Notes under the pieces: model-generated
What the model was told of the DNA's origin: nothing
Database searches by the model: none
Seen by the model: only the letters and a program-made list of their open reading frames with translations
NCBI GenBank assembly: GCA_902602795.1
Contig: CACKSF010000003.1
Span: forward strand, 1 to 61,947
From: an uncultured Fidelibacterota bacterium
GTDB lineage: Bacteria; Fidelibacterota; Marinisomatia; Marinisomatales; UBA1611
Direction of reading: 5' to 3'
DNA: 61,947 nt
Translations under genes and position numbers: made by a program
Shown here: positions 36,770 through 47,862 of the stretch, piece after piece
Position numbering within the stretch: position 1 is the first letter of the stretch
Layout of the letters: each line of letters opens with the position of its first letter

Positions 36770-37435
36770 ATGACTGATAATTTTAAACTAGCACCATCCA
36801 TTTTATCGGCAGATTTTTCCGATCTTCAATCGGCACTAAAAATTTGTGATGGAGGCAATGCTCATTGGATACATGTTGATGTTATGGATAATCAGTTTGT
36901 ACCAAATCTTACTATTGGTCCACCAGTGGTGAAATCATTGAGGTCAAAAACACAAAAATTTATGGATGTTCACATGATGGTTATTAATCCAGAGAAGCTT
37001 GTAGAGCCTTTTGCCAGAGCAGGAGCAGATAATATAACATTCCATATTGAAGCTACAGATGAACCTGAAAATATTATTGATCTGATTCGCTCTTGTGGGT
37101 GTAAGGTAGGAGTGTCTATCAAACCTAAAACGCCATTATCTGATATCTATCCTATTCTTGATAGGGTAGATGTCGTGCTAGTAATGAGCGTAGAGCCAGG
37201 TTTTGGAGGCCAAGGTTATCTTCCAGAATCAAGTGAAAAAATAGCCTCCATTAAGTCCTTTTTAACTGAAAATTGTCTTGACCGTGTATCAATTGAAGTG
37301 GATGGAGGTATTAAACTTCATAACGCGAAAAGTATTTTGGAAGCGGGTGCTGATATTTTAGTTGCAGGATCAGAAGTTTTTAAATCAAATGATCCAGTTC
37401 AAACTATTAAAGATTTTTATAAATTATCTAACTAA
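36770..37435 (+). CDS. rpe: Ribulose-phosphate 3-epimerase
   Basis: APSILSADF, HVDVMD, MSVEPGFGGQ, EVDGG. Confidence 0.97.
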   Translation: MTDNFKLAPSILSADFSDLQSALKICDGGNAHWIHVDVMDNQFVPNLTIGPPVVKSLRSKTQKFMDVHMMVINPEKLVEPFARAGADNITFHIEATDEPENIIDLIRSCGCKVGVSIKPKTPLSDIYPILDRVDVVLVMSVEPGFGGQGYLPESSEKIASIKSFLTENCLDRVSIEVDGGIKLHNAKSILEAGADILVAGSEVFKSNDPVQTIKDFYKLSN

Positions 37436-37516
37436 TAATCTGTTTAATTTATCCTTATCATAAATAAGATATTTATTAACAGCTAAAAATATTTTCAATT
37501 ATTAAAAATTAATTTT

Positions 37517-39544
37517 ATGAAAACTTATCATGATATTGCTAGTTTTACCCAATGGTCCGATTTTGATAAAGACCAATATTCAATTGCGGTAATCAAGGGA
37601 TTGGTCATGGATGCTACCAGAGAGGCTAACAGTGGCCATCCTGGAGGTCCATTATCATGTGCAGATTTTGCATACGTGCTATATAAACATTATTTAAAAT
37701 TTGATCCAGAAAATCCTAATTGGTTTAACCGAGACCGGTTTGTACTCTCTGGTGGACATATGTCAATGGTGCAATATGCATTATTACTTTTTACAGGTTG
37801 GTTAACACTCGATGACCTAAAGAAATTTCGTCAGCTTCATAGTAATACACCTGGGCATCCTGAAGTTGAAATTCCTGGGGTAGAATGTACAACTGGACCA
37901 CTAGGTCAGGGCTTTGCCATGGCTACAGGAATGGCACATGGAGAAGCTTATCTGCGTAATATATTTACCAATAGCTCTATAAAAGCATCTAATTTAGTAG
38001 ATCACTATACCTATGTACTTGCAAGTGATGGTGATCTGCAAGAACCCGTTGCGTTAGGTTCTGCATCGCTAGCTGGACATCTATGTCTATCCAAACTTAT
38101 TGTTTTTTACGATGCAAATGAAGCTCAGATATCTGGGAATACAAATCGCTCAGATTCTACGGATTATAAAAAAATATTTGATGGTTTCAATTGGCATGTT
38201 CAAGAAATAAATGGTCATAATCATGATGAGATAAAAAAATCTATAGAATCAGCCCAGCAAGAGGATAGGCCTAGTATAATTATAGGCAATACTATTATGG
38301 CTAAAGGTACTGCTAGCATGGAAGGTGATCATAATACTCATGGAGCTCCACTTCCACAAAAAGAGATTGACAGTTCTAAGAAAAAGCTTGGGCTTCCTAA
38401 TGAAAAATTTTATTATCCTGATCAAATTAAGGATTATTTTCAATCCAGATATTCTAAACTCTCTTCCGAAGTTCGTTTTTGGGATGATGAAAAAGATCGA
38501 TTAGTATCTTTGCAAGACATCTCTTCCTTAATATCAATTTGTATTGAGGATAACCTACCAAATTTTAAATATCCCACTTTTAATTCTGGAGATTCTATTG
38601 CGACGAGAAAAGCTTTTGGAGCAACTCTAGATAAATTTGCAAGTAAAATACCTAACCTTATTGGTGGATCAGCAGATTTAGAGCCATCTAACTATACTGG
38701 CAATTTTGCAGAAACGTATAAAGATTTTTCTAGAGGCGATCAATCTGGACGTAACATACCTTTTGGTGTGCGAGAATTTCCGATGGCTTCAATGATGAAT
38801 GGTATGGCTCTTCATGGAGGTTTGATACCATTTGGCGGAACATTTTTGGTTTTTGCTGATTATGAGCGTCCTGCTTTACGGCTTGGTGCATTGCAAAATG
38901 TAAGGGTTATTCATGAGTTCACGCATGATTCCTTTTATGTCGGTGAGGATGGGCCAACTCATCAGCCCATTGAACATGCAATGTCATTAAGGACAATACC
39001 TAATTTCAATGTTTTTAGACCGGCTGATGCCAAGGAGACGGCAATCTGTTTTCGTATAGCTTTGGAAAACAAGTATACCCCAAGTGCTTTATTATTAACT
39101 AGACAAGGTGTTCCGGTTCTTGCGCACAATTATGCTACATTAGAACATGATGTAAAGAAAGGAGCCTACATAGTTCAGGATAGTGAAAAAACACCGGAAT
39201 TAATATTAATTGCTACTGGCTCAGAAGTTTCTCTTGCACTTGAAACTGCTAAGTTGATGAAAGATAAGAACATTAGAGTAATTAGTATGCCATGTATGGA
39301 AATTTTCGAAAAACAGGATAGTGATTACAAGTCTTCTATTATACCTGGTAGAGGGTGTTTGAAAGTAACAATTGAGGCAGGAATAACTCATGGATGGGAA
39401 AAATTTTCAGGTGTTAATGGTCTATCCATTGGAATAAATCATTTTGGTGCTTCAGCTCCGGGGAAAGTTCTCGCGGATGAATTTGGTTTTACTGCTGAAA
39501 AAATAGAAATAAGAATTAGAGATCACCTAAAAACTCTCTTATGA
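37517..39544 (+). CDS. tkt: Transketolase
   Basis: NSGHPG, TTGPLGQG, SDGDLQE, FGVREF, VGEDGPTHQP. Confidence 0.97.
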   Translation: MKTYHDIASFTQWSDFDKDQYSIAVIKGLVMDATREANSGHPGGPLSCADFAYVLYKHYLKFDPENPNWFNRDRFVLSGGHMSMVQYALLLFTGWLTLDDLKKFRQLHSNTPGHPEVEIPGVECTTGPLGQGFAMATGMAHGEAYLRNIFTNSSIKASNLVDHYTYVLASDGDLQEPVALGSASLAGHLCLSKLIVFYDANEAQISGNTNRSDSTDYKKIFDGFNWHVQEINGHNHDEIKKSIESAQQEDRPSIIIGNTIMAKGTASMEGDHNTHGAPLPQKEIDSSKKKLGLPNEKFYYPDQIKDYFQSRYSKLSSEVRFWDDEKDRLVSLQDISSLISICIEDNLPNFKYPTFNSGDSIATRKAFGATLDKFASKIPNLIGGSADLEPSNYTGNFAETYKDFSRGDQSGRNIPFGVREFPMASMMNGMALHGGLIPFGGTFLVFADYERPALRLGALQNVRVIHEFTHDSFYVGEDGPTHQPIEHAMSLRTIPNFNVFRPADAKETAICFRIALENKYTPSALLLTRQGVPVLAHNYATLEHDVKKGAYIVQDSEKTPELILIATGSEVSLALETAKLMKDKNIRVISMPCMEIFEKQDSDYKSSIIPGRGCLKVTIEAGITHGWEKFSGVNGLSIGINHFGASAPGKVLADEFGFTAEKIEIRIRDHLKTLL

Positions 39545-39981
39545 AAATACATTTAGCTACAGACCATGCAGGTCTAAATTTAAAAAATTCAATAAAAAAT
39601 CATCTTTTACATAAAGAATATTACGTGGAGGATCATGGGGCTTATGAATATAATGCTGAAGATGATTATCCAGATTTTATTTTTCCATGCGCAAAAGCTG
39701 TTGCTAATGATAAGGAAAGTAAAGGAATCATTCTTGGGGGATCAGGTCAAGGCGAAGCAATGGCAGCAAATAGAATAAAAGGATGTCGAGCAGCAGTATT
39801 TTATAATGGTCCTAAAGAAATAGTAACCCTGTCAAGAGAGCATAATAATGCGAATATATTATCGTTAGGAGCTAGGTTTATGGATGAAAACGATATCTTT
39901 GGGGTAATTGAGTTATGGCTTAAAGAGTCGTTTAAAGGGGGTAGGCATCAAAGGCGCATTGATAAATTAGATATTTTATAA
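39541..39981 (+). CDS. rpiB: Ribose-5-phosphate isomerase B
   Basis: ATDHAG, DDYPD, GGSGQGE (Glu-type), SREHNNAN, GGRHQRR. Confidence 0.93.
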   Translation: MKIHLATDHAGLNLKNSIKNHLLHKEYYVEDHGAYEYNAEDDYPDFIFPCAKAVANDKESKGIILGGSGQGEAMAANRIKGCRAAVFYNGPKEIVTLSREHNNANILSLGARFMDENDIFGVIELWLKESFKGGRHQRRIDKLDIL

Positions 39982-39983
39982 AC

Positions 39984-40520
39984 TTAACACATCTTCCCAC
40001 CTATACTGAAATAACCAAGTTTTTTCCTTTCAACTGTTCCTTTCTTTAAATCATATATATCACATGCTTCATATGGCTTTGCATAAATATGAAGGCTAGT
40101 AGAGAAATTTTCTGATATATTTTTTACAGAATGGATATCGGCTGGCCCATCCAAGTATCCTGCATCACAGGATAATTCATTTATCATATTTAGCTCTAAC
40201 GGGGAATTTGATAATTTTTTATAATTACCTATATAAAGATTGCCACTCTCAACTCTTGCCCAGCATTTTTCTCCCTCATGACCATGGATTGGAGCGTTAG
40301 TTTTTGGTGGCCAACATATCACAAGTATCTCAAAACTTTTTTCCCGGTAAATTAAATTTCTGGTATAAAATTCGTTCTTATAAAAAGCATATTTATTCAA
40401 GCTATTATGATTAAGTGAAAGATCTTGAAGGTATTTTGAAACTTTATTAACTGGAAAGTCTTCTTCTGCCAATCTCTGTAGACTTGATATTAGATTCTGA
40501 ATCATAATTTCTTTAACCAA
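39984..40520 (-). CDS. Cysteine dioxygenase family protein (eukaryote-like residues)
   Basis: YTRNLI, CWPP...IHGHEGEKCW, IHSV, SLHIYAKP; start may be ATG 40505. Confidence 0.85.
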   Translation of the reverse strand: MVKEIMIQNLISSLQRLAEEDFPVNKVSKYLQDLSLNHNSLNKYAFYKNEFYTRNLIYREKSFEILVICWPPKTNAPIHGHEGEKCWARVESGNLYIGNYKKLSNSPLELNMINELSCDAGYLDGPADIHSVKNISENFSTSLHIYAKPYEACDIYDLKKGTVERKKLGYFSIGGKMC

Positions 40521-40678
40521 TATAAATATGATATGATATATTTAATTTACCATCGCACAAAAGATCGTAGCTTCTAAGATTCATAATATTAATTTAACTA
40601 ACCTTATTTTTTTTAACTATCTAATTAATTATTGCAATAGAATTTAAATTTATTAAAAAAACAAGTTCAAAATTTTTC

Positions 40679-41764
40679 ATGAAAAATAGATTCTTCAATT
40701 TTTCTATTGGCATTTTAATATCTGTTATAGTAGCTCTTAGCAGCCAATTTTTGAGTAAGCTTTTAGGCATACAAGTTTTGCAATTAGAAAAAAGCCCAAT
40801 ATCGCCCATTTTTTTAGCCCTCATTGTCGGTGTTCTAATTGCAAATACAACTAGGTTAGCTGACATATGTGATTTGGGAATTACATTTTGTATTAAATAT
40901 ATTTTAAAAATTGGTATCATATTGATGGGAATAAGGCTAGGGATGAATGAAATGATATCCTTTGGCTTCAAAGGTTTTCTAGTTGTCACTCCGTGCATCA
41001 TTTTAACGTTGCTAATGGTAGACAAAAGTCGTTCTTATTTTGGATTATCTTCAAATTTAGCTACTTTGATTGCTGTTGGAACTAGCATATGTGGTGCGAC
41101 AGCAATAATTGCTACCGCTCCTGCTATTAAGGCAAAAAAAGAAGAAATAGCATATGCTATTGCAAATATTTCTATTTTTGGGATTTTTGCAATGGTATTT
41201 TATCCGCTTGTCGCTCATTATTTTTTCCCAAAAAACCCTTTATCTGCAGGTTTGTTTTTAGGGTCTTCAATACATGAAACTGGTCAAGTAGCTGGAGCAG
41301 GTATGATTTACGCAGATCAATATTTATCTCCAAAAGTGCTTGATGTTTCAACAGTCACTAAATTAGTTAGGAACACTGCTATGCTTGTGGTTATACCATA
41401 CCTTTCACTCAAGCATACAAGCTATAAAGAAACAGGTATTTCGATTGGAAAAAAACTTTACCAAATCTTTCCTTTTTTTATACTTGGATTCTTATTTTTT
41501 GGACTTGTAAGAACATTCGGCGATTATAGTCTAGAACAAAGCTCAAAAGCTTTCGGTTTATTTAACATTGAGTTATGGAATTGGTTAATCCTTGAAATTA
41601 ATTTTTTATCAAAATTATTATTAACAATTGCAATGTCTGCAATTGGGATTTCTACAGACCTAAAAAAACTAAAGTTAATTGGAGTGAAAGTTTTTTATTA
41701 TGGATTCGCAATTGCATTATTTGTTGGAGTAATAAGTCTCCTTACAACTTCATTATTTTTTTGA
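40679..41764 (+). CDS. YeiH family putative sulfate/sulfonate exporter
   Basis: LIAVGTSICGATAIIA, GSSIHETGQV, TKLVRN. Confidence 0.92.
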   Translation: MKNRFFNFSIGILISVIVALSSQFLSKLLGIQVLQLEKSPISPIFLALIVGVLIANTTRLADICDLGITFCIKYILKIGIILMGIRLGMNEMISFGFKGFLVVTPCIILTLLMVDKSRSYFGLSSNLATLIAVGTSICGATAIIATAPAIKAKKEEIAYAIANISIFGIFAMVFYPLVAHYFFPKNPLSAGLFLGSSIHETGQVAGAGMIYADQYLSPKVLDVSTVTKLVRNTAMLVVIPYLSLKHTSYKETGISIGKKLYQIFPFFILGFLFFGLVRTFGDYSLEQSSKAFGLFNIELWNWLILEINFLSKLLLTIAMSAIGISTDLKKLKLIGVKVFYYGFAIALFVGVISLLTTSLFF

Positions 41765-41817
41765 TTATGAAATAATAATTAGAATTTTCTTTAAGAAGTT
41801 TTACAGAATATTATTAA

Positions 41818-42690
41818 TTATTGCTTAGGATAAAAAAGGTTCTTTCCTTCAAATAGTTTTGTTCCATTTACATAGCTATAATATTTTCGACATTCGCATG
41901 AAAGATATTCAATGTCAATTGGGTGAAAATTTCTTTTTGCTTCCGGCCAGTATTTTTTTTGAAGCTTAATCATATGAGCAAAGACTTTTTCATCGCTGTC
42001 TTTCTTTAGATAACGTTTAAGTATTTCAATGTAAGCTATAGCTCCAATCCCAACGGGGACAAAACTATCTGGCTTAATGATGTCAGGCCTAAACCAAGCA
42101 ATATCCATTACTGCCATAAAAATTGGAAAATCATTTTTCATTTTAAAAATTTGATTTATTTGATTTGTTGCTTCAATTACAGATCCATTTGAGTTGAGGA
42201 TTATGCTTGATAACATCTCTTTGCTTGATTTTAGTACATGAGTAGCAGTCTCGAGTCTAGAGTATTCCGTATCATTTAATTGAATTGGCTCTACAGGGTA
42301 TGCAGTTGTATTACACCAAAAATTAATATCGATTAGAGCACTAGATAATTTATCAGGATCTAAAAGCAACAGTGGATCTAAGATATCTAATGTCTCTTGT
42401 TTGTTACACCATCTAGAAAAAAAGATTGCTTGAATTAATGATGGAAAATCAGAATCAATTTTATTAATAAATTGTATTATAGATTTACTACCTCTATCAT
42501 CTTCGCGAAAAACATTAAGAAAACGTCCTTTTTGAAAAATGGGATCGTTGCTCCAAGGAGCAGGTAAACCCGATTCTCTTTTAAGGCGGATGTCCTCCCT
42601 TTTTTTACAAAATTGAAAAAATGCACGAACAGGATTTTCTAAAACCAATCCGTCTAATGCAGATTTATAAGGATTAAAAGTTTGGTGCAT
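41818..42690 (-). CDS. aGPT-Pplase1 / amino acid:DNA transferase-like protein (HhH glycosylase-related fold)
   Basis: REDIRLKRESGLPAPWSNDPIFQKGRFLNVFREDDRGS resembles the family's N-terminal signature; also RWCNKQET, VPVGIGA and C-terminal DIEYLSCECRKY. Confidence 0.75.
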   Translation of the reverse strand: MHQTFNPYKSALDGLVLENPVRAFFQFCKKREDIRLKRESGLPAPWSNDPIFQKGRFLNVFREDDRGSKSIIQFINKIDSDFPSLIQAIFFSRWCNKQETLDILDPLLLLDPDKLSSALIDINFWCNTTAYPVEPIQLNDTEYSRLETATHVLKSSKEMLSSIILNSNGSVIEATNQINQIFKMKNDFPIFMAVMDIAWFRPDIIKPDSFVPVGIGAIAYIEILKRYLKKDSDEKVFAHMIKLQKKYWPEAKRNFHPIDIEYLSCECRKYYSYVNGTKLFEGKNLFYPKQ

Positions 42691-42804
42691 TATAAAATTA
42701 AAAACAGGTAGTGCTTTTCATTATAACATCTAATAATAAAAAAATTACGCACAAGTGTTAATTTAAACATACTGATTAATTATTTTTTTAAGTAAAAGAA
42801 AGGT

Positions 42805-44424
42805 TTGATTTTGGTTAAACACTTTTTAACTATTTTGGTTTTAGTTCTTGTTTTAGGATGTATTAGAGAAAATAAAGATACTCAACCTAGACCAAATATT
42901 TTATTTATTATGTCCGACGATCATGCATATCAAGCAATCAGCGCCTACGATCAAAAATTAATTAACACACCGAATATTGATAAAATAGCAGAGGGTGGTG
43001 CTATTTTTGATAATGCATGTGTTACCAATTCTATATGTGCTCCCTCAAGGGCTACAATCCTTACAGGTAAGCATAGCCATATTAATGGCAAGATTGATAA
43101 TAGTTCTCCATTTGATACCGCTCAGATTACATTTCCTCAGCTTTTTAAAAAAGCTGGGTATCAAACTGCGATGTACGGGAAGTTACACTTTGGTAATAAT
43201 CCTAAAGGTGTAGATGATTTTATGATATTACCTGGACAAGGTCATTATGTTAATCCTGATTTTATAACTCCCAGAGGTGATACTACGATAACGGGATATG
43301 TTACAGATATCATTACAGATCTAACACTTGAATGGTTGAAAAAGAAAAGAGATAAAGAGAAACCATTTTTGATGATGTATCTTCATAAAGCTCCCCATAG
43401 GCCATGGTGGCCAAGTCCTGAAAAGTTTCGTGAATTTTCAAAAAAAAAATTTCCTTTACCCGAAACCCTATTTGATGATTACAAAGATAGAGGCTTAGCG
43501 GCTAAATCGGCTGAAATGAATTTATTACTTGATTTAAGATATGGTCATGATTCAAAAATAAGGCCGGAAATATTGGAATCGATGATTCCTATCGATCCAT
43601 ACGTTGAGCCTTATAATTGGGGCGGTAGTGATGGGTTTTCTACTTCTTATGTAAGGTTTAATAAAGAACAAAAGGCCCTTTATGACCCTGTAATAGATTC
43701 AATTAATGTATGGTTTAAGGACAACTGGTCTTCTTTATCAATGCAAGAGAAAATGGAATGGAAATACCAGCGTTATATGCAAGATTATTTAGGTACTATC
43801 TCATCAGTAGATGATAATCTGGGGAGGGTATTAGATTATCTTGAAAAATCAGGCTTAGATAAAAACACAATAGTCGTATATACCTCAGATCAAGGGTTTT
43901 TTTTGGGAGAACATGGGTGGTTTGATAAAAGATTCATTTATGATGAGTCTTTTAAAACACCTTTGCTTGTAAAATGGCCGGAAAAAATAGCCCCAGGTAT
44001 AAGGATATCCAAAATGGTTCAAAATCTTGATTTTGCCCAAACTTTTCTAGATGCAGCAGATATAAATCAGCCTGCTGATATGCAAGGAAAAAGTTTAATG
44101 CCATTGCTCCTTGGACAAGGAAAAAATTGGAATAGAGAAGCGGTATATTATCATTATTATGAATATCCATCGGTGCATATGGTGAAACGTCATTATGGTA
44201 TTGTAACTGAAGATTACAAGCTTGCTCACTTCTACTATGATATCGATGAATGGGAATTGTTTGATCGTCTGGCTGATCCAATGGAAATGAAAAATGTATA
44301 TTACGATTCATCCTATAACGAAATTGTAATAAAACTTAAGACTCAACTCGGAGAACTTAGAGAAATGTATAAAGACTCAAGAGAATTGGATTTATATTAT
44401 ATAAATAAGAATTTAAATAATTAA
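42805..44424 (+). CDS. Formylglycine-dependent sulfatase (S1), lipoprotein
   Basis: RPNILFIMSDDH, CAPSRATILTG (CxPxR), GKLHF, YTSDQG, GEHGWFDKRF. Confidence 0.95.
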   Translation: MILVKHFLTILVLVLVLGCIRENKDTQPRPNILFIMSDDHAYQAISAYDQKLINTPNIDKIAEGGAIFDNACVTNSICAPSRATILTGKHSHINGKIDNSSPFDTAQITFPQLFKKAGYQTAMYGKLHFGNNPKGVDDFMILPGQGHYVNPDFITPRGDTTITGYVTDIITDLTLEWLKKKRDKEKPFLMMYLHKAPHRPWWPSPEKFREFSKKKFPLPETLFDDYKDRGLAAKSAEMNLLLDLRYGHDSKIRPEILESMIPIDPYVEPYNWGGSDGFSTSYVRFNKEQKALYDPVIDSINVWFKDNWSSLSMQEKMEWKYQRYMQDYLGTISSVDDNLGRVLDYLEKSGLDKNTIVVYTSDQGFFLGEHGWFDKRFIYDESFKTPLLVKWPEKIAPGIRISKMVQNLDFAQTFLDAADINQPADMQGKSLMPLLLGQGKNWNREAVYYHYYEYPSVHMVKRHYGIVTEDYKLAHFYYDIDEWELFDRLADPMEMKNVYYDSSYNEIVIKLKTQLGELREMYKDSRELDLYYINKNLNN

Positions 44425-44522: not shown

Positions 44523-45095
44523 TTGAAAAACAATATTTACATATGGCTTTTTTTTATTTTAATCTTGGCCTCCTGCAGTACAGAGGATAAGATTAAAACA
44601 TATCGACTGCCTAAAAAATCGATTGAAACTTCAATCCTGGTTGAAAAGGAAAAAGTACCATCTGAAATTAGCAGTGAGACTAAAAAATTTACTTTACAAT
44701 GGAAAGTACCTAGTAGTTGGGAACAATTTGACGGTCATTCTATGAGGATGGCAAGTTTTTATGTTCCTCACTCAACTGGGAAAGGAGAATTATCTATTAC
44801 TGAATTTTCGGGAATGAGTGGAGGTATTCAAGCTAATATTAACAGATGGAGAGGACAAATATCTCTCCCGCCTGAATCCGAACAGAGTATTTTAACATCC
44901 TCAAATTCATATAATAGTGAATTGGGTAATTTTTTATTTTTTGAACTAGCAAATGAAACATCTAATCAAGGTATATTGGCATCGATTTATGAATTGTCAA
45001 ACAGAACAATATTTGTAAAGTTATCTATTGAACAGTCTGCATTAATCGAGATCAAAAAGGATTTCATAGCTTTTTCTAAATCTATCTCATTATGA
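44523..45095 (+). CDS. Hypothetical lipoprotein heading the ccs operon
   Basis: Lipobox LASC; WKVPSSW, MRMASF, ANINRWRGQ; overlaps the start of the next gene. Confidence 0.75.
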   Translation: MKNNIYIWLFFILILASCSTEDKIKTYRLPKKSIETSILVEKEKVPSEISSETKKFTLQWKVPSSWEQFDGHSMRMASFYVPHSTGKGELSITEFSGMSGGIQANINRWRGQISLPPESEQSILTSSNSYNSELGNFLFFELANETSNQGILASIYELSNRTIFVKLSIEQSALIEIKKDFIAFSKSISL

Positions 45096-46219
45096 ACATT
45101 AATTTTTTAGATAAGTTTTTAAAAATTATAATGAGCCCAAAAGTTTTTTCGTATACTTTGATATGGCTTATAGTACTTGTTTTTTTTGGTACAATTGCAC
45201 AAAAAGACATTGGCTTATACGCCTCGCAGATGAAATATTTCTCATCTTTTTATTTCTTATTTCTAGGTTTTATTCCTTTGCCTGGAGGCAGACTAGTTTT
45301 GTTGCTGATGACAATTAATTTATTTTCTAGTATGTTCAAACGGAACTTGTGGCAGCTTAAGAAAATTGGTATCGTAATTGTTCATTTAGGCGGATTGTTA
45401 CTTTTGGTTGGTGGAGGACTTACTGCATATTTTAGTTCTGAGGGTAATATGGTAATAGCTGAAGGTGAAGCTACTAATTATGTAGATGATTATCACAATA
45501 TGGAGTTAGCATTTGTGAATAATTCTCTCAAAGACAGTATAGAGTATACCGTAGTTGATGAATCTCTCCTATATGAGGGCAGTCGTTTTCAAATTTTTGA
45601 TGAAGGACCAGAAATTTATGTTATAAGTAACATTAAAAATGTTCGTATTGAAAATCGCATCTCACCAGCAGATTCAATATACAAGGGTCTTTTAGAAAAA
45701 TTTGTTTTGTTGCCCAAAAGACCCGAAGCAGAGAATACTCAAAACAGACCTGCATTGATATATAAAATTGAAGGAACAAGTAATAGATCTGATGGAATTT
45801 ACGGTCTTTTTCTTGGTCAAGGTTTGAATGATCCATTTAAAATAAAAGATCAAATTTTCCATTCAGAATATCGCAGAGAAAGAACATATGTACCTTTTGA
45901 TATTCAATTAATAGACTTTGAAAAAGTAATGCATCCAGGAACCAATGTTGCCAAAAGTTTCAGTTCGGATGTTAACTTAATTGAAAATGATATTCCTAGG
46001 CGGACATTAATTAAGATGAATGAGCCGCTTCGTCACAAGGGATATACTTTTTTCCAAGCCTCTTTTATTGATGATTCAGAAATAGAGACCACTGTTCTTG
46101 CAACTGTAAAAAATTACGGAAGACTATTTCCTTATATTTCAAGTATTATAATGAGCATTGGTCTTCTTATTCACCTACTTTTGATGATGCCAAAAATGGT
46201 TAAGGGAAAGCCAAAATGA
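45092..46219 (+). CDS. Cytochrome c biogenesis protein ResB/CcsB-like
   Basis: GTIAQ, IVHLGGLLL, SFSSDV, IKMNEPLRHKGYTFFQASF. Confidence 0.85.
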   Translation: MNINFLDKFLKIIMSPKVFSYTLIWLIVLVFFGTIAQKDIGLYASQMKYFSSFYFLFLGFIPLPGGRLVLLLMTINLFSSMFKRNLWQLKKIGIVIVHLGGLLLLVGGGLTAYFSSEGNMVIAEGEATNYVDDYHNMELAFVNNSLKDSIEYTVVDESLLYEGSRFQIFDEGPEIYVISNIKNVRIENRISPADSIYKGLLEKFVLLPKRPEAENTQNRPALIYKIEGTSNRSDGIYGLFLGQGLNDPFKIKDQIFHSEYRRERTYVPFDIQLIDFEKVMHPGTNVAKSFSSDVNLIENDIPRRTLIKMNEPLRHKGYTFFQASFIDDSEIETTVLATVKNYGRLFPYISSIIMSIGLLIHLLLMMPKMVKGKPK

Positions 46220-47862
46220 ACTCTATAAAAATAAACATATCATTTTTTTATTTTTTCTTTTTTCTTGCAAATTTTTTAATTGTTCCATTAAGCGCATTTG
46301 AAGTTCAAAATATACCCGTTCAAAGTGAAGGAAGGATTAAACCTTTAGACACATTCGCAAGAAATATGTTGCTTACGTTTTACGGAAAAAGAGAGATAAA
46401 AGATCAAAATATTAAAGCAACAGATTGGTTACTAGATTTAATTCTAGATCCAGAGAGGGGTCGCGATTTAAAAGTTTTTAATATTAGAAACCCTGAGGTG
46501 GTTTCAAGTCTGTTCCTTGAATGGTCTACCCAACATAAATACAGTTTCAATGAAATAATTAACGGGATTAAAAACCAAGTAGAGTTGATAAAAACCATTG
46601 ATCAGAAAGAAAGTCAAGATAGAACTCCTTTTGAGAAACAATTACTAGAACTTAGTCAAAGTGCTATTATGTTTGAAGAACTATCATACATGAAAAATAT
46701 TAAATTGATACCACCTGCATTATTAGATGAAAATGCGGTATGGCAATCTCCATTTGATTTTATCATAAGTGGTGTAACGCCCGCCTATCATCAAGAAGAA
46801 ATTTTAAATTCCCTTCAAAAATATTTAGCAGCTCGCTTTCAGAAAAATGATCTAGAAATGAACGATGCACTATTTAATTATGAAAAAATAGTTTCTGATT
46901 TATCTTTAAGTCCTGTTGATGTGAAGAAGTTAAAAGGTGAAACTTGGATGAACGATGTTAATCTATTTGTTAAAAGTTTAGCCTTTTACATTTTATCTTT
47001 CTTACTTATTGGAATAAGTTGGATGGCAAAACCAAGTTTTTTTCGTAACATTTCTTTTATGTCTCTAATTATCGGCTTTTTGATACATGGTTATGGAATA
47101 GTCATGCGCATGTACATAATGGGCCGACCACCTGTTTCTACCTTGTATGAATCGGTTATTTTCGTTTCATTTATCCTTTTACTTTTGGCAGTTGCATTAG
47201 AATATTTTCGCAAAGATGGGTTAGGTATTTTTGTAGGATCTATTGGTGGAAGTATTCTGCATTTCATAGGATTTAGTTATGCAGCTGATGGAGATACACT
47301 TGGGATGTTAGTAGCAGTTTTAGATTCTAATTTCTGGCTGGCTACTCATGTAACAACAATAACAATAGGGTACGGAGCTTCTTTAGTTGCAGGCTTTATA
47401 GGTCATCTTTACCTTATCCAAAATATCTTAGATTCATCTAACTCTAAAAAACTAAAAAGTATATTTAATAATTTGTTCGGCATGACATTGTTTGCTTTGT
47501 TTTTTACCTTATTTGGCACTATTCTTGGAGGTATTTGGGCGGATCAATCCTGGGGTAGATTTTGGGGCTGGGATCCAAAAGAAAATGGTGCATTATTAAT
47601 TGTACTATGGCAGCTTCTTATGATTCATTCAAGGCTAGCCGGAATAGCAAAACCCCCTCTATTTGCATTAGGAATGGGTTTGAATAACATAATAGTTGCT
47701 TTAGCTTGGTTCGGAGTGAACTTGCTTCAAGTTGGTTTACATAGCTATGGTTTTGATGATGGAGTTGCAAAGAATTTATACTTATTTATACTGCTAGAAA
47801 TATTGATTTGCTGTGGATTATACTATTATCCAAAATTTAAGTTTAAGTTTCAAAGTGTCTAA
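46216..47862 (+). CDS. ccsA: Cytochrome c biogenesis protein CcsA/ResC (system II)
   Basis: GRIKPLDT, RPPVSTLYES, WLATHV, WWD domain WADQSWGRFWGWDPKEN, GLHSYG. Confidence 0.95.
   Translation: MNSIKINISFFYFFFFLANFLIVPLSAFEVQNIPVQSEGRIKPLDTFARNMLLTFYGKREIKDQNIKATDWLLDLILDPERGRDLKVFNIRNPEVVSSLFLEWSTQHKYSFNEIINGIKNQVELIKTIDQKESQDRTPFEKQLLELSQSAIMFEELSYMKNIKLIPPALLDENAVWQSPFDFIISGVTPAYHQEEILNSLQKYLAARFQKNDLEMNDALFNYEKIVSDLSLSPVDVKKLKGETWMNDVNLFVKSLAFYILSFLLIGISWMAKPSFFRNISFMSLIIGFLIHGYGIVMRMYIMGRPPVSTLYESVIFVSFILLLLAVALEYFRKDGLGIFVGSIGGSILHFIGFSYAADGDTLGMLVAVLDSNFWLATHVTTITIGYGASLVAGFIGHLYLIQNILDSSNSKKLKSIFNNLFGMTLFALFFTLFGTILGGIWADQSWGRFWGWDPKENGALLIVLWQLLMIHSRLAGIAKPPLFALGMGLNNIIVALAWFGVNLLQVGLHSYGFDDGVAKNLYLFILLEILICCGLYYYPKFKFKFQSV

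Follow-up and report, generated by a model that had tools for sequence, protein, structure and literature searches.

What does a gene of a family known from phage DNA hypermodification do among the metabolic genes of a bacterium? The question is raised by the gene at positions 41818-42690 (minus strand) of a 61,947-nucleotide stretch from an uncultured Fidelibacterota bacterium (contig CACKSF010000003.1; "the window" denotes this whole stretch). An earlier sequence-only reading had described it as an orphan, phage-type DNA hypermodification enzyme like aGPT-Pplase1 / amino acid:DNA transferases in a cellular setting. Its product is read here as a working stand-alone enzyme of aGPT-Pplase clade 1 that would act, by means of a cysteine, on a uracil substituted at C5 and bound in a pocket of the glycosylase type, a reading favoured tentatively and at somewhat less than an even chance. 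The features of the gene are as follows.

41818-42690, minus strand: stand-alone PF18723 (HMUDK_hel / aGPT-Pplase clade 1) gene, 290 amino acids (aa), ATG start, end coordinate including the stop codon
42733-42761, minus strand: sigma-70-like promoter match TTAACA-17-TATTAT (10/12 match to the consensus), ending 43 bases upstream of the ATG
42493-42564, minus strand: N-terminal block PAPWSNDPIFQKGRFLNVFREDDR, residues 43-66, the most conserved N-terminal part (P45, W46, D49, F57, N59, R62, D65)
42391-42414, minus strand: RWCNKQET, residues 93-100, with R93 kept in at least 90% of relatives
42040-42060, minus strand: VPVGIGA, residues 211-217, a helix-hairpin-helix (HhH)-like Gly-x-Gly hairpin before helix 218-228 (secondary structure from the AlphaFold model)
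41881-41916, minus strand: DIEYLSCECRKY, residues 259-270, putative active-site helix with E261, C265, E266 and K269

A functional gene of the family PF18723

The frame at 41818-42690 is intact, with 290 codons and no interruption, and the four motifs picked out by the sequence-only reading, PAPWSNDPIF (residues 43-52), GRFLNVFREDDR (residues 55-66), RWCNKQET and DIEYLSCECRKY, were all present. It is a real gene and no chance open reading frame (ORF). Comparison with same-genus orthologues gave a ratio of nonsynonymous to synonymous substitutions (dN/dS) of 0.16-0.18 at dS values of 0.25-0.40, and the gene is under clear selection and functional. Its composition matches that of the host (GC 0.321; GC at third codon positions 0.223, with 0.227-0.252 in the neighbouring genes). 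The promoter match is weak, 2 such sites being observed against 7.6 expected in shuffled sequences. Parts of the gene were covered by short contigs in two RNA libraries, each from a different study (41829-42093 and 42304-42549 in library X16, 41907-42113 in X20), mostly with 1-5 mismatches per piece and with 15 in one X16 piece; they are no more than a hint of transcription, and may stem from DNA carry-over.

The protein matched PF18723 with an expectation value (E) of 4.9e-25 and 88.9 bits, for a cut-off of 25, over residues 21-271 and positions 4-272 of the 281 in the profile, and the match reappeared in a profile search of the whole genome. Both hallmark blocks of the family were found, W..D...F.N..R.DD in the N-terminal part and E...CE..K in the C-terminal part. 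Besides PF18723, Pfam held nothing else of note for the 290-aa protein at E<=10; the PHROG family phrog_2396 (function unknown) matched at 6.9e-25, and no NCBIfam family matched the protein or P0122, a fused relative described below. PF18724 (ADDT) gave no match even at E<=10, whereas PaMx11 gp46 scores 97 bits. No P-loop family of Pfam matched and no G-x4-G-K-[ST] motif occurs among the 290 residues; the protein is therefore not a kinase.

The older family name aGPT-Pplase1, proposed by the sequence-only reading, was supported by a comparison of phage gene orders. In phage PaMx11, gp50 matches PF18723 (5.6e-41, 141 bits) and its gene sits between those of the P-loop kinase gp49 and the ThyA-like gp51; in the M6-like phage SN1, the kinase-adjoining gene is named aGPT-Pplase1 (PMC9476957). 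Since these two genes share their position, PF18723 corresponds by inference to the former aGPT-Pplase clade 1, the clades being those of Iyer et al. 2013 as relayed by citing papers. From the SN1 gene order, M6 gp55 would likewise be the clade-1 gene. Pfam itself names PF18723 '5-hmdU DNA kinase, helical domain' and PF18724 'ADDT, amino acid:DNA transferase'.

Amino-acid transfer was shown for M6 gp51 and ViI gp247, both of clade 2, by Lee et al. 2021 (PMC8989533), and demonstrated amino acid:DNA transferase activity is limited to clade 2 (PF18724: M6 gp51, ViI gp247, PaMx11 gp46). The transferase function carried over to this protein by the sequence-only reading was dropped, given that restriction, the missing PF18724 match and the dispensability of M6 gp55 (see below). 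The closer phage comparison is with the clade-1 proteins PaMx11 gp50 and Ab18 ORF13, which bear the same PF18723 over their whole length. PaMx11 gp50 aligned with the protein end to end (23% identity, E 4e-14), with the FxN.xREDD and E..xCE..KY blocks in common. The phage clade-1 genes lie between a P-loop kinase gene and one for a ThyA-like dUMP hydroxymethylase, near a clade-2 transferase, none of which was found here.

A glycosylase-type fold with a conserved Glu/Cys helix

The AlphaFold model, built on a 51-sequence alignment, was confident (predicted local distance difference test 94.8; predicted template modelling score 0.90) and displayed a predicted fold of the HhH DNA-glycosylase type. 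In an exhaustive structure search over 48,161 chains, the best match was the phage transferase PUGT (PaMx11 gp46; 8z2m_A; Z 8.5, root-mean-square deviation 4.3), with 206 residues aligned between positions 22-274 of the model and 8-256 of the chain. QNG1/DUF2419 came next (Z 8.2 and 8.0), followed by HhH DNA glycosylases (Z 5.2-7.4), and 13 of the 14 top rows were PUGT, QNG1 or HhH DNA glycosylases. A language-model feature search from which PF18723 clusters were excluded placed clusters of PF18724 ADDT nearest (scores 0.90-0.92). Searches of the PDB sequences with phmmer (the protein) and hmmsearch (the 51-sequence profile) returned only designed helical proteins. A match was thus found on both counts, profile and structure, on which the family assignment of the sequence-only reading hung. 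Isoelectric points (5.6-9.4 within the clade, 5.7 for PUGT) were uninformative.

In an alignment of 24 diverse relatives, R31, D49, R62, D65, Y131, E261, C265, E266 and K269 were invariant. In the alignment of 51 sequences R62 remained invariant and D49, D65, C265, E266 and K269 were kept in at least 90%, with E261 not among the columns at that level. G214 and G216 of the Gly-x-Gly hairpin were also at least 90% conserved, and 92 columns were invariant across three phyla. We take the hairpin (residues 211-217) to bind backbone phosphate, following the pattern of HhH families. Between G216 and E261 no column reached 90% in either alignment, hence there is no conserved Asp after the hairpin and the protein is not a classical HhH-GPD glycosylase.

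PUGT carries a Glu-x3-Cys motif on an apparently equivalent C-terminal helix, and hhalign paired E261 and C265 with E243 and C247 of PUGT in a weak local match, whether PUGT alone or an alignment of 24 clade-2 sequences was compared; the ranges aligned in the structure search are consistent with this pairing. In PUGT, Cys247 has been proposed as the nucleophile that attacks C6, and the metal in contact with thymine O4 is bound by Glu243 (PMC11472151); Cys-to-Ala and Glu-to-Ala mutants of M6 gp51 and ViI gp247 lost activity (PMC8989533). A Glu-x3-Cys motif common to the protein and PUGT is plausible from these alignments, though not proven. No counterparts of the phosphate- and glycine-pocket residues of PUGT could be matched in the protein, and unlike the amino-acid transferases M6 gp51, ViI gp247 and PUGT it lacks a PF18724 match; its profile similarity to clade 2 is confined to 27-28 columns.

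The other structural neighbours also differ from the protein. QNG1/DUF2419 (7u07, 7ugk) shares a glycosylase-type helical fold over 204-209 aligned residues and shows by precedent that such a fold can serve an enzyme of free modified nucleotides, but its substrate is of the purine type, identity is 7-10% and Pfam gave no DUF2419 match. With the HhH-GPD glycosylases (OGG/AGOG, Mag1, AlkA, Nth, MutY) the protein has the overall fold and the Gly-x-Gly hairpin in common; it has no Pfam HhH-GPD match and lacks the conserved Asp, and glycosylases do not feature a Cys/Glu pair like the one conserved here.

A marine clade of cellular sequences

The gene is no one-off but a member of a large cellular clade of marine bacteria. 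A word-indexed database search returned 1546 homologues at E<=0.001; the best 120 were 60-90% identical and nearly all from marine metagenomes, with two labelled Marinimicrobia. An exhaustive search gave 1463 representatives at E<=0.001 and just 26 at E<=1e-30, and among full-length matches identity stepped down from 50% or more to 27-35%, a break that sets the clade off as discrete. Scanning a collection with one genome for each species for the sequence pattern yielded 247 candidate stretches, 185 of which encode a relative; the best 80 of these 185 underlie the results given below by locus (groups, neighbours and fusions). The 80 loci, on contigs of up to 1 Mb, belonged to Neomarinimicrobiota (SAR406), Ca. 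Actinomarina/OCS155, Myxococcota with 'Deltaproteobacteria', and a few other labels.

Across phyla, sequences in the clade were 55-60% identical and joined by short branches. In a tree of 43 rows the cell sequences formed one group (support 83/97) with a stem of 0.64 and short inner branches, and PaMx11 gp50 and Ab18 ORF13 fell in the other main branch (support 100/98). The gene thus belongs to a tight, cell-only marine clade carried on chromosomal contigs, apart from phage sequences. Actinomarina sequences were nested among those of SAR406 with modest support (85/83); gene transfer from one marine lineage to another may lie behind this. The gene was present in 54 of 61 genomes (0.6-1.1 Mb) of the Ca. 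Actinomarina family and in 11 of 24 genomes of the same SAR406 family as the window.

Kinase fusions and no modification module found

In 9 of the 80 loci the PF18723 protein was longer (416-500 aa) and ended in an AAA_28 P-loop domain; all nine were labelled Myxococcota, Deltaproteobacteria, Nannocystaceae, Hydrogenedens or Rickettsiales. These fusions of HMUDK_hel with AAA_28 (about 490 aa; P0122, P0124, L058, L084 and others) were 50-57% identical to the window protein over the helical domain and kept all its motifs, but bear a C-terminal NadR-like kinase where the window protein stops after the helical domain. The fused kinase matched AAA_28 (5.8e-25) and the ribosylnicotinamide-kinase part of NadR (TIGR01526), and its model (predicted local distance difference test 80) had NadR as its nearest structure (template modelling score 0.67), ahead of adenylate, thymidylate and deoxynucleoside kinases. 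The P-loop kinase that accompanies clade 1 in phages is a different one, of the AAA_33 / Zeta-toxin / PF18748 type. Two separate unions with a kinase, by fusion in cells and by adjacency in phages, argue for a functional link, which fits a logic of activation followed by substitution.

No such partner was found in the genome of the window. Its 1.38-Mb assembly, 59% complete, gave no match to PF18748 (5-hmdU kinase), PF13521 (AAA_28), PF18724, PF12851 (TET/JBP) or PF00303 (ThyA and hydroxymethylases). PF18724 and PF18748 were also not found in four gene-carrying relatives of 95-99% completeness (for PF18748, G005, G012, G018 and G035), with the PaMx11 record matching as positive control. With P0304 as fused-kinase query, G000, G005, G012 and G035 gave no match and G018 gave one of only 17.8 bits (E 0.0027), and no AAA_28 above the cut-off occurred in one 1.1-Mb Actinomarina genome. 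Positions 30000-54999 had no near-identical DNA among 50,697 phage records, and the window holds no tRNA gene.

In the reading adopted here, the gene is not part of a thymine-hypermodification module in this bacterium: the phage-type context of a P-loop kinase plus a dUMP hydroxymethylase was not found in the 59%-complete genome, and membership in PF18723 stands on the sequence itself. A prophage-type module elsewhere, named by the sequence-only reading as the outcome that would make the gene a relic, was found neither in the genome nor in the four relatives. That reading had also seen no kinase, hydroxymethylase or phage gene in the window; the genome profiles and the phage-DNA search agreed, and for phage genes the statement stands as far as these searches reach, not every ORF of the window having been compared with phage proteins. 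The cellular setting without found partner genes and the undescribed role were also upheld.

Several enzymes for which the protein might have stood in were present alongside it, which leaves it no obvious stand-in for any of them. Pseudouridine-5'-phosphate glycosidase (PsuG) occurred in the genome of the window as well as in 10 of 14 PF18723-positive relatives, and UDG in all four distinct genomes tested (G035 and G044 being identical). Of 41 relatives, 37 had ThyX, which this genome has too, and 1 had ThyA, independently of the PF18723 gene, and thymidine kinase, present in 39 of 41, does not discriminate. As a separate observation, one 1.1-Mb genome of the SAR406 order (G035/G044; L050/L012; 99% complete) stands apart from the other 40 relatives: it has ThyA instead of ThyX, and no thymidine kinase was found in it, yet the PF18723 gene is kept.

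Proposed reaction and alternatives

In the reaction proposed for the stand-alone enzyme, a uracil-type base, most likely that of a nucleotide flipped out of DNA, would be bound in the pocket. Glu261 would hold a metal or serve as a proton relay at O4, and the addition of Cys265 at pyrimidine C6 would allow the group on the C5-methylene carbon to be exchanged or removed, a chemistry modelled on that shown for the phage clade-2 transferases. The substrate would probably be a 5-hydroxymethyl-type or other C5-substituted uracil arising or arriving in the cell without phage genes, because the clade is cell-only and inherited on chromosomes. By analogy, DNA as substrate is favoured by the nearest structure being that of a DNA base-flipping enzyme, by the conserved hairpin and by the phage relatives acting on DNA. 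Family membership, the fold, the conservation of residues, the selection on the gene, its distribution and the negative searches for partner genes are shown by the data; the catalytic role of Cys265, the kind of base and the choice of DNA as substrate are what we infer in this scheme.

A number of points weigh against this reading. Z scores near 8, such as the 8.5 of PUGT, are common among helical proteins, and the structural argument rests on the coherence of the match list rather than on the score; Foldseek against the PDB gave no match at E<=0.001 and placed OGG1, DUF2419 and PUGT at E 0.4-0.8. The hhalign match to clade 2 was local only (27-28 columns, E 0.012-0.02, probability 2-4%), and sequence homology to the characterised clade 2 lacks statistical support. 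The name given by Pfam casts PF18723 as the helical part of a kinase, M6 gp55 was dispensable for phosphorylation and glycine transfer in a reconstituted reaction (PMC8989533), and in the literature searched on aGPT-Pplase, HMUDK and PF18723 no enzymatic activity was reported for clade-1 members. By their titles and the starts of their abstracts, none of the aGPT-Pplase/HMUDK papers concerns the cellular clade, and PF18723 returned no paper. No source of 5-hydroxymethyluracil (ThyA-like hydroxymethylase, TET/JBP or 5-hmdU kinase) was seen in the 59%-complete genome, and the gene is patchy in SAR406 relatives (14 of 41 genomes; 7 of the 24 at least 90% complete). Against DNA in particular, the fused kinases resemble nucleoside and nucleotide kinases, and QNG1 scores almost as high as PUGT.

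These last points lead to the main rival, the same chemistry on a free nucleoside monophosphate, as a QNG1-like salvage or clean-up of a modified pyrimidine nucleotide, which is possible though on the doubtful side. The fused NadR-type kinase would then phosphorylate the nucleoside first; the form without a kinase would start from the nucleotide. QNG1, solved with queuosine-5'-monophosphate according to the entry titles, is tied with PUGT (Z 8.0-8.2), and both the family matches of the fused kinase (AAA_28, the NadR part of TIGR01526) and its model, nearest to NadR and then to nucleotide kinases, agree with a nucleotide substrate, as do the thymidine kinases that mark nucleoside salvage in 39 of 41 SAR406 relatives. 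In Actinomarina, the gene follows a co-oriented run that includes a dihydroorotate-dehydrogenase match (Pfam was run on that gene and the ribose-5-phosphate isomerase B (RpiB) gene only). The kinase type does not settle the substrate, however, as phage 5-hmdU DNA kinases share the general kinase fold yet act on DNA; moreover, the conserved Gly-x-Gly hairpin is typical of DNA-backbone binding, no neighbour recurs across lineages, no candidate substrate is known, and PsuG co-occurs with the gene rather than being replaced by it. A non-catalytic helical module that recognises or presents a modified base for a kinase or partner, or a DNA-binding or regulatory protein, would suit the 'helical domain' of the Pfam name, the adjoining or fused P-loop kinases and the dispensability of clade 1 in vitro, as found in the M6 study. 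It is unlikely, with no AAA_28 or phage-type kinase found in the 59%-complete genome, no PF18748 in four relatives, and an invariant Glu-x3-Cys-Glu-x2-Lys among 92 invariant columns that suggests an active site more than a scaffold.

The enzyme could also serve against phages, recognising or stripping the thymine hypermodifications of infecting DNA. The origin of the family in the phage-host arms race and its patchiness in SAR406 relatives speak for such a role, and the DefensePredictor paper (PMC13092281) has the aGPT-Pplase domain among predicted, unvalidated defence domains. PADLOC-DB 2.0 returned 0 families at E<=1 for the 290-aa protein, though, and neighbours of a metabolic or housekeeping kind at positions stable within lineages, near-core status in Actinomarina genomes of 0.6-1.1 Mb (54 of 61) and 55-60% identity across phyla on short branches, unlike fast-evolving defence genes, make the role improbable. 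A decaying relic of a prophage module without present function, to which the full-length homologues (23-25% identity) in phages with thymine-modification clusters might point, is close to excluded by the intact frame, the dN/dS of 0.16-0.18, the host-like composition, a clade that spans three phyla separate from phage sequences, and the lack of phage DNA at 30000-54999, of a tRNA gene in the window and of a module elsewhere in the 59%-complete genome.

Genomic neighbourhood

The genes next to the PF18723 gene, named from the letters alone by the sequence-only reading as cysteine dioxygenase, YeiH and a sulfatase, were confirmed by Pfam and TIGR families.

39984-40520, minus strand: cysteine dioxygenase type I (PF05995)
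40679-41764, plus strand: YeiH family, putative sulfate exporter (PF03601/TIGR00698)
42805-44424, plus strand: sulfatase, arylsulfatase / N-sulfoglucosamine-sulfohydrolase-like (PF00884+PF16347)

A sulfur theme is common to these three surrounding genes (39984-44424). The sulfatase and YeiH genes flank the PF18723 gene in at least two same-genus genomes (L002 and L006; L015 and L016 are apparently the same genomes), and other lineages have different neighbours. Clustering of the neighbours over the 80 loci gave no gene common across lineages; the survey of orthologues thus revealed a cellular setting and no cross-lineage partner. Within lineages the position was stable (about 17 Actinomarina and about 14 SAR406 loci), among housekeeping or metabolic genes. 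LptF/G, GreA and PEPCK recurred in one SAR406 group, and Actinomarina had a dihydroorotate-dehydrogenase-like gene upstream and RpiB and fumarase-family genes downstream. A diaminopropionate ammonia-lyase-like neighbour occurred in three loci and a homoserine-kinase-like neighbour in two. The recurrent neighbours are lineage-specific, and no function was read from them.

Some features of the surroundings are worth recording in their own right. In the about 17 Ca. Actinomarina loci the next gene downstream of PF18723, in opposite orientation, is that of RpiB, which may be coincidence. In the window, 2 kb upstream, positions 36770-39981 (plus strand) hold a run of three ORFs of 221, 675 and 146 aa; same-genus loci L015 and L016 hold matching ORFs (221/141, 675 and 146 aa), of which the 146-aa ORF clusters with the ribose-5-phosphate isomerase B family (Pfam was run on the Actinomarina member). 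A 190-aa ORF at 44523-45095 (plus strand) has a lipoprotein-like N-terminus and matched neither Pfam nor NCBIfam. Two large membrane-protein ORFs come directly after it (45092-46219 and 46216-47862); the second carries by eye a WGxxWxWDxxE-type motif, which we take to recall the cytochrome c biogenesis protein CcsA. A 134-aa ORF antisense inside the YeiH gene (40621-41025, minus strand) is most likely no gene, and recurs in same-genus loci because the sense YeiH gene is conserved. In three Myxococcota-type loci (L087, L088 and L090), a pyridoxal-phosphate (PLP) enzyme of Cys/Met metabolism (methionine gamma-lyase / cystathionine gamma-synthase family) follows the fused gene in the same orientation, with PNGase-F-like and DUF4215 genes nearby on either strand; PLP enzymes accompany phage modification clusters too.

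Significance of a cellular clade 1

To our knowledge, all that is known of the aGPT-Pplase superfamily comes from DNA hypermodification in phages, with activity demonstrated for clade 2 only. Clade 1 appears here as a strongly conserved chromosomal gene, nearly core in Ca. Actinomarina and also found in SAR406. Ca. Actinomarina has among the smallest genomes of free-living bacteria, and genomes of this kind are considered to retain little that is dispensable, which makes a useful function of the protein very likely. In its fullest form, the proposal would make the marine cell-only clade a new cysteine-dependent enzyme for 5-hydroxymethyluracil-type bases, used in repair, detoxification or salvage in the abundant, streamlined ocean bacteria SAR406, Ca. 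Actinomarina and marine Myxococcota; stated so broadly, we consider it decidedly unlikely. If true, the base could come from thymine oxidation, from hmU-containing phages or from dinoflagellate DNA; the last is rich in 5-hydroxymethyluracil and, as a speculation, a conceivable supply of substrate from the environment. The enzyme could yield thymine, uracil or another adduct, and the Myxococcota version would first activate the hydroxymethyl group with its fused kinase.

The present value of the finding is that of a testable question, not an answer. The proposed enzyme, if true, would represent an unrecognised branch of cellular pyrimidine metabolism with common ancestry with phage DNA hypermodification, and it might yield a tool for labelling and mapping 5-hydroxymethyluracil. 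Solving the role of clade 1 in cells could reveal its role in phages, and could bring to light a reaction new to cells that acts on C5-substituted pyrimidines, as nucleotides or within DNA.

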